DNA of 64,000 nt from Eledone cirrhosa (lineage: Eukaryota): contig OZ024741.1 in NCBI GenBank assembly GCA_964016885.1, positions 319,362,001 through 319,426,000 on the forward strand. The letters run 5' to 3'. Positions within the stretch are counted from its first letter, which is position 1; each line of letters starts with the position of its first letter. Below the pieces are notes generated by a model. The model did not search any database. It worked only from the letters and a program-made list of their open reading frames with translations, and had not been told where the DNA came from. The position numbers were made by a program, and so were the translations under genes. Below, in pieces: positions 1 to 59,322 of the stretch.

Positions 1-185
1 AGGGATAGGTGATACATATAGTTATTTGCCAAGTAGCGTATGCCAAAGGTGCTCGATACTAGTGCCGGCAGTATTAAATATTCGAAGTGTTAATATTTAG
101 TGGGCTAGAGAGTTAGCAGAGCGTAAGCACGTGGGAAAGTGAAAAATCGGAGAATAGACCGTTAAAACATGTTTATTGAAAATAT

Positions 186-224
186 CACCTACGTACGTTT
201 CGCCCAGTTGGGCTTCTCAAGGGC
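186..224 (-). ncRNA. Minimal hammerhead ribozyme motif, U3-A8 core variant, in the PLE 3' pLTR
   Basis: Minus strand reads GCCC TTGAGAA GCCC-AACT-GGGC GAAA CGTACG TA GGTG. Palindromic stem III, weak stem I. Confidence 0.75.
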
Positions 225-475
225 ATAAACAGTCACAAGTGTTCCTTATATAGTTTGGAAAGAGATTTGGGGGTTAAATCGACATCAAGATTCGTCGCTC
301 GCAAAAATATCTTGTTTTGATTTTGCAGCAGGTCAAGGGAGGTAACTTTGGCCGGTGTTAGGGCAGTCTTTCCCGGATAATTTTTGGTATGCAGGGATCG
401 TTTTCTGGGTGTTGTTTTGCTGCGCCTGCCCGCCGGGGTGTTAAGATTTGTTGCAGGGAGATCCAGTGTGTTATT

Positions 476-2360
476 TCACTCTCCATTCTTAACCCATCTA
501 AAGAAGGATATTTTTAAGCGATGTGTACAACTTATCGCTGTTTCAGCTCTGCTGTTGATGAGCTCGTGGGGTGCAGTTATGATGTGGTAGAGCTCCATGA
601 GGCAAAGATCGCATTTCCTCTTGAAGTTGTACGGTGCAGCCCTGTCGACAATCTCCCAGTGCGTGGAGAAGCTAATGTTTAAGTCCTTTAGTGATGTGAT
701 GTAGTCCGCGAGCGAGGTGGAGTGCCTTAATTTTCTATTTGTGAAAGAGTGGAGATGTGTTCGAAACCTAATTTTGAACGGGCCGGAGGTGGCCCCTATA
801 TAATGTTTAACGCTATTGTGGCTAGTAATAGTGCATCTATATATAACCCTATCGGTCAAGCAGTATCCTCTAAGGGGGCACCGTCCTCTGTCGCGGCAGT
901 TGCAATTTCTGTCGCTGTTCCGTCTATTTCCCACGATAAGGCTATCATTGTTGTTGCCTACGTTGTTAGCTGTGATACCGCAGCTGTCGTTAGCACAATT
1001 ATAACCCACAGCACGCGGGATGGTGCGATTGTTATTCCGCACGCCATGTTTTGCATGCTCCCCAGTCACTTCGCGGTCATTCTGGTTGCGTCTGCGGATG
1101 CCGTTGCCAACACTATTGGATGCTGCCAGGGAGTTGTTAAGGCCAATACAGTTATTGTCAGGTGTAGGTGCGTCTGCGTCGAGGTGCTGTGTCTTGGTGA
1201 TCTTACTGTGGTTCGTTGTTCCTATGATGTCTGCTAGGTTAGGAGTAGTAGAGAAGGATATTTTTATATTGTTCCTATTAAGAATTTTTCTATACCTATG
1301 GTTGGGTGGGAAGTTCTTCTCTAAGGCTTCGAAGAATATCCGGGGTATGTTGGAGGCCACACTTCGAGAGTAGGGGGTGGGTGGGTGGAACTATAGGACG
1401 TTACGGTGGCGATTACGTGTCCTTGTACTTTTGCTACGGGTGGTTCCATCTAAGTGATCGCTCTTATGTGTGTTAATGCGCTGTCGCCCGTTCGGTGCCC
1501 CTTTCACTTTATGCTCGGGTGCACTCTTTCTACCACTTCCATGTTTATGTACACGAAGATGTTGGTTGGAAGGCGTTGGTAGTAGGCCGTCGCCTTTGTT
1601 GGTTTTGTAATAGGGGAATAGTTTGAGTAATCTACAGTATTCACCGTCGCCGGGGACGTGATCTTTGGTGCGGTTATCTATTCTATTATATCCGACTTTA
1701 CCGAGGTCGCCGCGTGATCGGTTATAGGTATGGCTTACTATAACGTTAGTTTTATGAGGGGGGTGGTTTCTAGAGCTAGCGTTAGGGATGTAGGAAATTC
1801 CTCGGTTAAAGCCGGCGCTTATCAGGGCCCTATTGTAGTAATCAGCCGCTTGGTTGAAGATATCCTCATTGGCGGATAGTCTCGAGATTCTATGTGAGAT
1901 ACTATAGACTATGGAGTTAAGAGTCTGCTTAGGGTGGTTGGAGGCATAATTAATATAAGAGAGGCACTCTCCAGGCTTATGGTATGGCTTGTATAAGCCC
2001 GTACTCAACTCCAGGGTCACGTCCAGGAAGTTGACAACCCTGTGGTTGAGGTCCATAGTTACGGATAGGCCGTATGACTTAAAGAACCTGTGTATATGTT
2101 TGTTAAGGTTCTCTATCCTACGGGGGCTATGGTTCCTAACGGTAAACAAGGCGTCGTCCCTATATACACCTCCTTGTAGAGCCGGTATTTCTTCCCTAAG
2201 CTTATGTAGGAGGTATATCCCAACCAGGTCGGTTGCTTGCGCTGAGTCGCTGGACCCCATCGTGACATCGAAGTTATCAGGACGGTTGGTTCTGGTCCAG
2301 TGGGAGCCTTCGAACTGGATAATGGTTCTACGTGCCGCTAGAATTATGTCTATTTCTTTT
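476..2360 (-). pseudogene. PLE RT-GIY-YIG ORF interrupted by one in-frame TAG (1391-1393)
   Basis: ORFs 1391-2260 and 476-1360 are in the same frame. RNVL*FHPP aligns with RNVTWFNPP of copy 2, i.e. TGG>TAG. Confidence 0.9.
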
Positions 2361-55610: not shown

Positions 55611-57236
55611 TGTTCTGCTGGAGAATGGGATAGCCATACGGTCACCAGATAGGTTGGTTAGTTGCGATAAAAGTGGGTTCCTGCCGGACGAGTAAGTAAC
55701 CTCGGATAACGCAGCGGTATGCTACTATGAGAGATGTAGCAAGGGTGACACTCTTAACTCTCAAGAAAACACTCACAACCCAGTGATGTAGTTACAAGGC
55801 GAAAAAAGCAACCTTTAAAAAAGCCTAATCTTCCCAGGTCCGAGAAAATTGCCAAAAAGCAATCATATCACGTTTTTTTTTAATTTATATTTTCTTATTT
55901 TACATTCCATTCTTAAAATTTCACTAAAACGTAATTTGCTTATGATGTAAAAGTTTATAGAGAATTAGTATTTATTTAAAGAGAGCTTCACTATTTGAAA
56001 ATATTTCTATTATGACGCAATAATGGCCACATTCTCTTCCGTAGATCATCACACCGTCTGAGTACAACATAGTAACCCAGAGTTCCTTACGTAATTTATT
56101 TATTTTGATGACATCACTACTGCTCTCATTTTTTATTGTTGTTTGTTGTTTGTTGATTTACAAACTTTACCGTTCTACTTTGTCCCAAATAACACCATTT
56201 TCCCGCTTTTCAATCTGTTATTTTGTTTGTGACGCCATCAATTAGTCGTCACGCTGTTTGTAACTTTTTGTTACGTCACGTGATGTTTTCATTGTATCAT
56301 AGAATCTGAATCTTACATAACATAAGTCTCTTGTCAACAAATATATTGAATATCAACAGTAGCAAAAATAATAGCAGCAAAGCAACAACAACAACGACAA
56401 CGACGACGACAACGACAACGACGACAACGATGACAACAACAACAATAACAACAACAACAGCAACAACAACAACAACGCCATCAGTAAAAATAACAACAAA
56501 AGCAATATGAACAACAGCAAACTATTCGATGACAATAACATCAACATCAACAGTAACGATATAATCTAGAATGTTTGTTACACACATACACATACACACA
56601 CACACATACATATACGCACACACACACATACACATACACATACACACACACACACTTATATATATATATTCTGAGTTAAGGCTCTATTGATTTTTCCCTG
56701 GATTTCACAATTCTATGGATAAATCTATGTCTTGATTTTTTTTTTAAATTGAGTTTGAATTATTTTTCCATTTTGACGTTATAGTCACTTATATATTATG
56801 AAATACTGTTGGTTTCACGCTCACAACAATTTCTATACTTATATATAAATATATAAATATATAAATATATAAATATAAATATAAATATAAATATGGCAGA
56901 AGCAGTAAAGCCAACGCAATTTAACGATTCACCTTTCTACAAACTTCTCTATGCAAGTTAAATCTCGCTGGAGAAAAACATGCTACGAAGCACATGATGT
57001 CGAATCGTTTGTAGGAATGATTCACCCATAATATATATATATATATATACAGATAAATCTACCACTCAATGGTAGGGTCTAAACCGTATAAAGAACTCAA
57101 TGTAATCCGTATGTAGATGTCGTGAAGCAAAGTTTAAAATAAAATTTTTTTTATCAACGATATAATTCAATTGGATACAGAGTCAAAATAGAAATATTAA
57201 AACAATGAAATTATATATTAAAACTATATATATATA

Positions 57237-59170
57237 GTTTTAATATAGATGAGATTCTACAGGACTAGAACTGTTTCATTCTTTAGAAATCATCAGGAAT
57301 CTGGCTTTCCAAAAATAAATGTTGTGGTATTTATATCTTTTCAGGCGGTAGGAGAGGGTGGGGAGTGGGATGGGTGGAGGTCATTGGTTGTAAGAAAAGA
57401 GAATTCATTAAAAGCTAATTCTTTAGGGCTATAATTTATATTTAGAGTGACAAAAGCAGAAAGAATTCTATAAACAGGTTCAGAATGGGGTGCTACTCCA
57501 TATTTTTAAGTTTCTCTTAAGCTAACAATGCCTATATTTCAGGTGTCTATAAGATGGTTGGGTGTCTGTCATGGTTGATGGATTTAAAGAAAAGGGAAAT
57601 TCTGTCGCTCAGAGAGTGGGATTGGCTCAGTGCACAGTCTTTCCTCACTTTAAAAAATATCTTCACGCACAAGCATTGCACGATAGAATTAATAATGGTA
57701 TATCGTACAATGGCCATACTCGATAACGAGGGGGCAGCCGTCATATATATATATAAGTTTATCTCGGGTTCAATCAGATGTAACCACAGTATATATATGT
57801 ATATGTGTGTGTGTGTATATATATATGTATATATATATATATATATATATATATATATATATATATATATATATATATATATATATATATATATATATAT
57901 ACATATACATATATATATATATATATACATATACATATATATATATATATATATATATATACATATACATATACATATATATATATATATATACATATAC
58001 ATATATATATATATATACACACACACACACACATATACATATATATACTGTGGTTACATCCGATTGATGTAATATAATGGATGATCGCATTTAAAGTCCG
58101 TTAAAGGTTCTTGGCACTACCATTGTTACCGTCGCTTTCCTCTAGCTATGGGGCTTGGAGACATGAACCGAATGCTACCATTCTATTTTATATCAATGTG
58201 AACTGCTATTTCTAATAGCCATCTTTTCACCCCTTGATAATTTGTGTGTGAGACACGTTGGCTGAGGGCTTCTGACAGGAACTAATAGATTGATTATTTT
58301 TAGCTTCCCGTCCCCACGTAAAATTTGTAAATCAGTGGCTAGTTGAGAGATAGAGTCCTATCGGTTGCCAGTTGCTAATCGCTTTACCGTGTCGGTTGTC
58401 ACAAACAGTCATGACAGCCATAGGCCGGTGTTTGGATTCTGCCGATCGATTGGTTATTGATCAGGCGATACCCGCTGATGAAGCCGCATAAGCCGATTGT
58501 GCATTGTTCCATAATATATGCAGACAGATGGTGCAGTGCACCTTACTGCTGCATTAGTGCGGCAGAAACTCGAGTCCGGGAAACTTATAGGCACCCGTTT
58601 TACGTGTGTTGTGTTGAGGAAAATAACTATGTGTATACTCTGGTAATGTATCTTACATTGTCCATTGAGTGCGCTGAGATACAACCGGTACTGGCATTGA
58701 TAAATAGGCTGGGTCCGTCAACCCTTATTATATATATATATATATATATATATGTATGTATGTATGTATGTATGTATGTATGTATGTATGTATGTATGTA
58801 TGTATGTATTGAAGGTTCACCACTGGATAGAGCTGGTCAATTCCGTATGGTCAATCTTAATGTAATAATATGGAGAGTACCCAACGTAAAGCAGTTCAAC
58901 CGTCTTCGTTAAAGAATTAGCTTTTAATGAATTCCCTTTTCTTTTAACCAATGACCTCCACCCATCCCACTCCCCACCCTCTCCTACCACCTGAAAAGAT
59001 ATAAATACCACAACATTTATTTTTGGAAAGCCAGATTCCTGATGATTTCTAAAGAATGAAACAGTTCTAGACCTGTAGAATCTCATCTATATTAAAACTT
59101 TTATACTCTGCTATGTATTGAGTACCTTACTTACTGTGGTTACCTCCGATTGAACCCGGAATAACTTACC
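57237..59170. mobile_element. Family B inverted pLTR pair (57237-57425 / 58910-59098) with hammerheads at 57252-57302 (-) and 59033-59083 (+), tail to 59170
   Basis: AGATTC CTGATGA TTTCT AA AGAAT GAAA CAG TTCTAGAC CTG TA GAATCT. Confidence 0.85.
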
Positions 59171-59322
59171 TATATATATATATATATATATATATATATA
59201 TATATATATATATATATATATATATATATAACGAAGGAAATGTGGTAAGGAACCAGGTGGACCATAACGCACCAAAGTACTCAATACTTGAGGTAGTAGA
59301 GTGGGTAATAGGAACCAGTAAG

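Follow-up and report, generated by a model that had tools for sequence, protein, structure and literature searches.

What do retroelement tails that do not align with one another have in common? The question is raised by a stretch of 64,000 nucleotides from Eledone cirrhosa (assembly GCA_964016885.1, contig OZ024741.1, positions 319,362,001 to 319,426,000 of the forward strand; the whole stretch is called the window below), in which a preliminary description noted one motif, YGAGTRCTY, in the tails of several families of hammerhead-ribozyme elements that adjoin microsatellites. Our answer is that the motif appears to be the 3′ side of a bulged hairpin whose 5′ RCTC arm had been overlooked, and that the families carrying it read as the 3′ ends of Hydra-clade Penelope-like elements (PLEs) or of their noncoding derivatives. 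The hairpin occurs twice in the leader between ribozyme and ATG, about 6 to 8 nt 3′ of each of two insertion ends, and we regard it, with a probability of roughly 0.6, as a candidate RNA anchor that would place the reverse transcriptase (RT) on its start site.

An oriented motif beside (TA)n runs

All 18 sites of the preliminary description are present within 2 nt of where it placed them, the one given as 49-54 lying exactly at 47-55. The microsatellite junction that it put downstream stands at 36 to 80 nt from 16 of the 18, and there is none within about 120 nt of the sites at 21802 and 40490. Counted on both strands, with the palindromic site at 40179/40180 entering twice, the strict motif has 17 matches in the window; 100 order-2 Markov simulations averaged 2.8 and never exceeded 7. 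Sites beyond the earlier list stand at 29262(+), 58666(+) and, in decayed form, near 26022(+). A match at 8899(-) was rejected as chance; a permissive arm finder fits this chance site too, and degenerate arms are therefore no evidence.

The enrichment and the positional bias claimed for the motif are both borne out in a random sample of 117 stretches of 10 kb from the 3.0-Gb host genome. There the strict motif stands in sense orientation in 61 of 988 flanks that face a (TA)n run, where shuffles gave 2.6 (maximum 6 in 20 rounds), and in antisense in 18; 53 of the 61 sense flanks have it 40 to 69 nt from the junction, and the flanks of non-(TA)n microsatellites hold it in 2 of 461 cases. Genome-wide, the pattern motif-N36-48-(TA)5 is matched 39,131 times in forward order and 801 times in the reversed control, both being pattern matches rather than copy numbers. 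The tails themselves do not align: with the motif masked, 127 relaxed hits fell into 36 blastn clusters, 14 of them with two or more members, and 2 of those 14 resemble chance repeats. The enrichment, the orientation and the spread across non-aligning families are real. De novo clusters of 1,561 junction flanks were too noisy for family definition, and many other repeat families in the random sample adjoin (TA)n without the motif (clusters 2, 3, 6-9, 11 and 12 among those listed).

That the families are "otherwise unrelated" holds at the nucleotide level only, since Hydra-type PLE open reading frames (ORFs) can be tied to families A, C and D and to those at 47, 13937 and 34616. Because of these links, common descent followed by retention under selection is the most likely reason why the motif is shared. 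The tail at 13937, described as an orphan, turns out to have a hammerhead core at 14273(-), and its family, F11, reads through into an ORF.

A bulged hairpin, duplicated in the leader

The predicted hairpin has the consensus RCUC, an upper stem of 1 to 7 bp, a loop, a 2-nt UY bulge, GAGY and RCU. At 15 of the 18 listed window sites there is a proper RCTC arm with 2 to 7 further pairs, the loops ranging from 3 to 52 nt. The window arms are mostly ACTC paired with GAGT, which is a compensatory change, and in most hairpin-1 copies of the host genome the lower stem has switched from G-C to A-U.

Relatives of these elements in metagenomes carry the argument beyond the host: 78 loci (36 to 43% protein identity) make up 58 families, 28 of which have a complete leader from ribozyme to ATG. 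Two GAGYRC words stand in the leader of 24 of these 28 families, one in 3 and none in 1, and in 3 of the 4 families with fewer than two, GAGCTC stands at the missing site. The word is concentrated upstream of the ORFs: 15.7 kb of such sequence contains 95 hits, and 156 kb of ORF only 13. An RCTC arm, nearly always GCTC, precedes 55 of 57 sites. The first pair above the bulge, which played no part in selecting the instances, is Watson-Crick in 52 of 55 hairpins (32 C-G, 20 U-A), and the next two upper-stem pairs are so in 30/50 and 24/34; each of these counts was reached by none of 10,000 shuffles. Alternative bulge registers pair in 0 to 5 of the 55, registers 0, 1, 3 and 4 failing. Across the structural alignment 97.6% of 338 cells are paired, and covariation is 0.230 against 0.091, which none of 500 shuffles attained. 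The spacer between the conserved halves varies from 8 to about 65 nt with its ends covarying as base pairs, and the commonest form of the 3′ side across the clade is GAGCACT. Hairpin 2 lies about 20 to 55 nt from the ATG in the metagenome families and about 65 nt from it in family A, where both hairpins are in the minimum-energy fold of the leader.

A model of the hairpin finds 13 window sites at E<0.1, 4 of them training sequences, and misses the long-loop hairpins; of its 145 hits on the 78 metagenome loci, 137 are on the sense strand and 52 are training sequences. Rfam at E<=1 had no match on 8 hairpin-bearing loci, and on the window the matches listed (150 of 316) held only microsatellite-driven miRNA noise and no hammerhead family. 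A triloop hairpin directly around YGA, which we had likened to telomerase P6.1, was abandoned in favor of the longer register that includes the RCTC arm.

Insertion ends and the hairpins

Family A copies terminate at two fixed places 80 nt apart: the short end falls before hairpin 1 and the long end before hairpin 2, and in family A tandems the tail continues into the 5′ untranslated region (UTR) of the next unit. Hairpin 2 likewise follows the long end in families D, F4, F5, F11 and F12. To locate ends more widely, we placed junctions on ten read-through references whose arms had been assigned manually, 21 and 1 internal TA runs (in two samples) and references F16 and F18 having been dropped before the count. 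Of 113 (TA)n junctions in the random sample and the window combined, 107 have an arm no more than 12 nt to their 3′ side, usually at 6 to 8 nt, and in loci selected by ORF the figure is 75 of 77; as background, such places make up 9% of positions and 10 to 29% of TA sites. Among 27 metagenome tails examined (3 further loci could not be aligned), 9 read on into the ORF and 4 hit the contig end, and 12 of the 14 true junctions break 0 to 4 nt before the arm, microhomology included. In 46 of 52 hairpins there is a TA whose first base lies 5 to 8 nt ahead of the arm (-8 to -5), the background rate being 31%. Single families agree: the short end of family B is 6 nt before the arm, and 10 of 13 inverted partners of F10 stop 4 to 11 nt before it.

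The spacing from end to arm stays steady while tail length runs from about 55 to 160 nt. A constant distance from motif to end was rejected: measured from the motif start, short ends are at about 20 to 72 nt and long ends at 45 to 88 nt. It is the distance to the 5′ arm that is constant. The hairpin that defines an end is never included in that copy, and tailed copies therefore show hairpin 1 in the middle of the tail, where the motif was first seen. Contigs of sequencing runs X1, X4 and X5 have loose (TA)n ends at the same two places (760 and 840 in locus L038); they may come from the same sample and are uncounted as support. In the leaders of L211, L214, L221 and L276, some metagenome copies start, or carry a (TA)n run, just 5′ of the hairpin, a pattern consistent with insertion at another copy's start site or with tandem formation there.

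Head-to-head insertions

In 39 of the 40 head-to-head insertions that could be classified, all of families A and F12, one arm has a short end and the other a long end (p=7e-11); the exception is short plus short, and two more were unclassifiable. Over 31 nt, the two arms within one family A insertion (26 pairs) show 1.3 differences, compared with 6.6 for arms of different insertions, and both arms therefore come from one source. The window insertion of family A has arms of about 0.7 and 2.9 kb whose inner ends are unrelated, and these unequal arms fit two separate primings better than a fold-back.

Identity of the elements

The frame at 60515-62095(-), whose 3′ end is "family A", is a 5′-truncated RT with a C-terminal GIY-YIG endonuclease (EN). 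All 80 scored copies of family A are 98 to 100% identical in protein, and the family is young. Counted from its first ATG, the full ORF encodes 717 aa and includes YRDD and, at the C terminus, a YIG motif; the F12 protein is 45% identical to it over 219 aa. Family A has this single ORF, with RT followed by C-terminal EN, the absence of the IFD being judged by length only. The predicted hammerhead cores read CUGANGA in B, C, D, F5 and F11 and UUGAGAA in A and F12, the latter being what we take to be a U3-A8 swap of C3-G8; in the family A hammerhead, moreover, stem II is long and loop III contains the palindrome GAGCUC.

The assignment to the Hydra clade rests on marks set out by Craig et al. 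(PMC8557442): a CxCX5C linker, no CCHH in the EN, and CxxC and CxH around the conserved E and N. Family A has CNCPDRSIC, PCNLCSEE and ACKH, F12 has CNCRDRGRC, CDLC and CTH, and neither has a cysteine pair inside the GIY-YIG core. Family A carries RWR and SDKT and F12 carries SDKT, which agrees with the RWK and DKT-for-DKG marks of the clade; RWR is also found in published Hydra-1_Crog. Insertion is into (TA)n, as in the clade, and a comparison by eye finds RLINP, FDVxMG and GLYRDD common to these proteins and the published Hydra proteins. Hydra PLEs are generally under 3 kb, which is given as a tendency rather than a rule (PMC8557442); family A departs from it with a tandem unit of 3531 bp, owing to its long 3′ UTR. 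Nematis had been our first guess and was replaced by Hydra on the clade marks and shared protein motifs, and a Naiad/Chlamys PLE was rejected, as the EN is C-terminal here and not an N-terminal GIY-YIG; motif words in published Naiad and Chlamys consensus sequences are mostly in ORFs or scattered. The family A protein itself had no match in Pfam or PDB sequence searches, the homologue P0001 matches PF01541, and the predicted family A model (pLDDT, the predicted local distance difference test, 89.8) has TERT as best fold match. No relative was found in viral contigs.

Read-through copies of D, F4 (the site at 34616), F11 (13937) and F12 pass hairpin 2 and then enter a Hydra-type ORF, and family C follows an ORF remnant in locus L010. 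F10 and B showed no link to an ORF, B having no in-line ORF in 29 loci. Family F5 (16692) has both hairpins and no ORF behind them in 8/8 loci. Its unit of about 1.7 kb, pieced together across loci L363-L370 and with 122 read-through matches genome-wide, has an interior with repeated TACTCGGA/GAGTRCTCGG words. At L365:1500-1610(+) an F5 leader extends beyond hairpin 2 and changes, ahead of the (TA)n run, into the terminal portion of the family A tail, a join that suggests template switching between families. The F12 ORFs (476-2359(-) of the window, and L160) have long Asn/Arg-rich insertions between RT and EN, in open frames of up to 968 aa, that resemble those described for Adineta vaga Penelope elements.

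Features of the window

The family A insertion at 59231..62828(-) lies between two (TA)n runs. Its direct copy is 5′-truncated and comprises the ORF remnant already mentioned, 3′ UTR, ribozyme and 80-nt tail, with the long end at 59231; the inverted part is a head-to-head 3′ copy with its short end at 62828. The predicted type I hammerhead at 59323..59416(-), with core UUGAGAA...GAAA, would cleave after the GUC at 59328, and its inverted copy is at 62723-62816(+). Hairpin 1 stands at 59275..59302(-) and reads ACTC-TACT-loop-AGTA-TT-GAGT-ACT; its 5′ arm lies 8 nt 3′ of the short-end site, 59311/59310. Stubs of the same family carry hairpin 1 at 20478..20505(-), in a fold-back stub; at 21783..21810(+), where the tail is broken by other sequence and has no (TA)n; at 28489..28516(-), 37325..37352(+) and 39580..39607(+); in divergent form at 40180..40207(-); and, decayed and absent from the earlier list, at 26004..26031(+). 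At the opposite end of the window, an F12 element (1..2386(-)) has a 5′-truncated RT-EN ORF at 476-2359 with one stop at 1391, a hammerhead at 186-226 and a 160-nt tail whose long end is about 33 nt past the window start (L001). Its hairpin 1, at 47..122(-), reads GCTC-TGCTA, a 52-nt loop and TAGTA-TC-GAGC-ACC, with the short-end site at 130/129, 7 nt 5′ of the arm.

Among the other families, hairpin 1 of F11 lies at 13937..13980(-) with a 7-bp upper stem. The F11 element (13877-14560) has a further repeat of about 190 bp between its hammerhead and this tail, and an inverted partner hammerhead at 14504(+). Family B has hairpin 1 at 15226..15260(-) and 59105..59127(+), the latter with a hammerhead core at 59034-59070; in relatives its short end is 6 nt 5′ of the arm. 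The noncoding F5 has it at 16692..16755(-), with a core at 16823-16868(-), and F4 at 34616..34669(-). Family C has it, with a 1-nt bulge, at 20312..20335(+), beside a core at 20237-20272, and retains only the motif at 26336..26344(+), where an internal deletion removed the 5′ arm; family D has it at 25659..25683(+). An F9 hairpin absent from the earlier list, GCTC-TAG-loop-CTA-TT-GAGC-GCT, is at 29240..29270(+), and a probable further family, with ACTC-TGG-loop-CCA-TT-GAGT-GCG upstream of (TA)n, is at 58637..58674(+) (model E 1.1). The F10 tail at 47187..47214(-) has an arm that is weak here and intact in L103 and L144. The motif at 40490..40498(+) has just a degenerate arm, lacks a (TA)n run in the vicinity, and is either decayed or chance. 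At 59034-59310, elements of families B and A are joined tail to tail by a common (TA)n run (59171-59230), as are C and A at 20372-20433; the (TA)n runs are landing pads for repeated insertion.

The rest of the window includes an unbroken 623-aa frame with WD40 repeats (Pfam) at 4693-6564(-), which is a large exon or a retrocopy; a long interspersed nuclear element at 43857-46562(-), with apurinic/apyrimidinic (AP) endonuclease and RT in a 901-aa open frame (Pfam); a second AP-endonuclease remnant at 11259-12038(+) (Pfam); and, at 22917-24878, four tandem copies of 492 bp with 99% identity, terminating at a (TA)n run.

Candidate mechanism and alternatives

The preliminary description proposed a cis-element common to the system, and in this it was right: the motif is clade-wide and tied to the insertion ends, and binding by RT and EN, the use it named first, would be the leading function. 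We propose that the RT-endonuclease would bind the hairpin in sense RNA and nick (TA)n, and that cDNA would be primed on the UA 6 to 8 nt upstream of the hairpin, so that the anchoring hairpin itself would stay uncopied. A start at hairpin 1 would give the short end; a start at hairpin 2 would copy through hairpin 1 and leave a tail, and this would be why one motif was seen in each tail. The equation of genomic ends with RT starts is taken from work on another PLE (PMC11167929). One may go further and see paired protein-loading hairpins, one for each subunit of an RT-endonuclease dimer, with one RNA priming both strands of the cut (TA)n at two programmed starts. We hold this extension only tentatively and think it more doubtful than not; such a two-subunit rule would produce a tail at one end only, head-to-head inverted copies, and hijacking by noncoding hammerhead elements.

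Several points weigh against an RNA anchor. The biochemical precedent comes from another clade, Poseidon, where we see no sign of the motif. The lower stem was used to pick the instances, and its pairing is no test; the lineages of hairpin 1 and hairpin 2 and related sequences inflate the covariation counts. Single hairpins are modestly stable (z -1.4 to -3.3, with the whole A leader at z -1.3), and the centroid fold of the family A leader loses the upper stems. Embedded G-U pairs outnumber A-C by 8 to 3 in the metagenome hairpins, which makes for a weak strand test (one of each is probably chance), and two further counts of strand bias had no clear outcome. For B, C and F10 no read-through copy with hairpin 2 was found, the searches giving 1, 3 and 0 chance-looking matches. 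The ends scatter from 0 to 12 nt, with the F12 long end at 11, because TA microhomology blurs them, and the short-plus-long rule rests on two families. Finally, the Penelope EN of D. virilis needed the tail in order to recognize DNA (cited in PMC11167929), which would favor a reading of the hairpin as DNA.

That reading is the main rival, and we consider it unlikely. It holds that the hairpins act as DNA, in single-stranded cDNA or an extruded intermediate, and are read by the GIY-YIG EN, which would cut 6 to 8 nt upstream, with at least the short end being a resolving cut. Craig et al. hold that the tail most likely results from EN-mediated resolution (PMC8557442), the strict short-plus-long rule and the identical arms would also fit one RT start and one cut, and the weakness of the strand test is in its favor. 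However, the short and the long end are placed alike relative to one and the same structure, which suggests that a single reaction makes both; in vitro, in the only PLE so examined, both ends of the tail are RT starts (PMC11167929); the unequal window arms with their unrelated inner ends speak for two primings and not fold-back; and the long-end cDNA is without hairpin 2.

The remaining readings fit worse than either the anchor or the DNA-reading view. It is improbable that the hairpins are mainly expression elements (a translational operator for the element's own protein, or part of an internal promoter) with the ends nearby only through the shared leader. The short distance from hairpin 2 to the ATG in the metagenome families suits such a role, as does the location of PLE promoters in this region (PMC8557442), but it leaves hairpin 1, the tight end spacing, the UA at -6 and the retention in a noncoding family unexplained, and hairpin 2 of family A is about 65 nt from its ATG. 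Covariation around a variable loop also argues against a double-stranded promoter site, and the core promoter element suggested in the preliminary description is unlikely on the same ground, the spacer varying while its ends covary as base pairs. We give still less credence to stop signals like the template-boundary element of telomerase, at which antisense-template or second-strand synthesis would halt 6 to 8 nt before the hairpin. The combination of fixed 3′ ends and variable 5′ truncation fits initiation at the 3′ end of sense RNA, such starts were seen in vitro (PMC11167929), the G-U pairs lean to the sense strand, and long ends would need to pass hairpin 1; these count for more with us than the stem-loops that set the template boundary in telomerase and DRT10 (PMC12632851), the antisense template proposed for PLEs (PMC3846280) or the structural match of the predicted family A protein to TERT. 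Dimerization through the palindrome, also raised at the outset, is the least credible of all: GAGUACUC and GAGUGCUC are self-complementary as RNA, but the clade-wide GAGCACU, often followed by U, A or G, breaks the dyad, GAGY is taken up by the upstream RCTC arm in the folds, and the covarying pairs are intramolecular and lie outside the "palindrome".

Relation to known systems and significance

Hydra PLEs, their ribozymes, their (TA)n targeting and their tails are already known. The elements here resemble those of Craig et al. in protein motifs, C-terminal GIY-YIG, a predicted hammerhead close to the 3′ end, insertion into (TA)n, both tandem and inverted arrangements, and a tail at one end (PMC8557442). 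They differ in tails of about 55 to 160 nt, against 30 to 40 there, and in the 3.5-kb length and U3-A8 type core of family A. The main text of that paper leaves the hairpin unmentioned ("hairpin", "bulge" and "palindrom" each occur 0 times). Of the 6 novel Hydra consensus sequences published, 4 nonetheless carry it, unremarked: Hydra-1_Ajap has it twice at the start, Hydra-2_Amil and Hydra-2_Ajap have it once, in their tails, and Hydra-1_Crog has a variant with GCCC/GGGC. The call in Hydra-1_Obim is ambiguous, and the Hydra-1_Amil consensus leaves the region uncovered.

The nearest biochemistry is that of the Poseidon element PAc of Anolis carolinensis (Frangieh et al. 2024, PMC11167929), whose tail spans the interval from one RT start site to the other. 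RT starts at +111-118 there but depends on RNA as far as +172, and hence on sequence lying 3′ of the start; extension takes place on both target strands, and the protein is predicted to dimerize. A binding motif is hypothesized there in the first 172 nt of the ORF, with no duplicated element reported in the accessible text, and PAc starts without homology to the target, whereas the starts inferred here share TA with it. Metazoan non-LTR (long terminal repeat) retrozymes are noncoding hammerhead elements thought to use PLE enzymes (Cervera and de la Peña 2020, PMC7229834; bioRxiv 10.64898/2026.07.22.740005), and F5 may be one of them; the accessible text of these two papers names no recognition signal, with "hairpin" occurring 0 times in both. 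The F5 unit differs in its length of about 1.7 kb and is known here from genomic sequence. Hepadnavirus epsilon, HIV TAR and the MS2 operator all have two stems around a short pyrimidine bulge that is bound by the element's own protein, and epsilon also fixes the RT start; their likeness to the present hairpin is one of analogy only. In telomerase and DRT10, too, a stem-loop beside the template fixes where a TERT-related RT works (PMC12632851), but those elements lie 5′ of the template and mark a stop, whereas the hairpins here come as a pair and lie 3′ of the inferred start. The accessible text of a paper on O. vulgaris repeats (PMC13282606) is uninformative on the hairpin. Subscription papers and closed supplements aside, literature searches found no mention of the hairpin, its duplication or the short-plus-long rule, and we are apparently dealing with a real, undescribed cis-element of a known retroelement clade.

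How PLEs choose their internal start sites is an open question, the in vitro study having located the starts and not the signal (PMC11167929), and why the tail appears at one end only is another. A duplicated hairpin of 30 to 40 nt at a fixed distance from the ends makes the start-site question testable by a few mutants. It is also a candidate signal by which noncoding hammerhead elements may borrow the PLE enzyme, and a diagnostic for annotating the ends of Hydra-clade elements, with at least tens of thousands of pattern matches in the host genome. A portable start signal could, moreover, serve tools for RNA-templated insertion. Because the RTs of PLEs are the sister group of telomerase, a hairpin acting as an RT-positioning RNA would bear on the origin of template positioning; and the two-subunit reading, if true, would place a template-positioning element on the 3′ side in that sister group.

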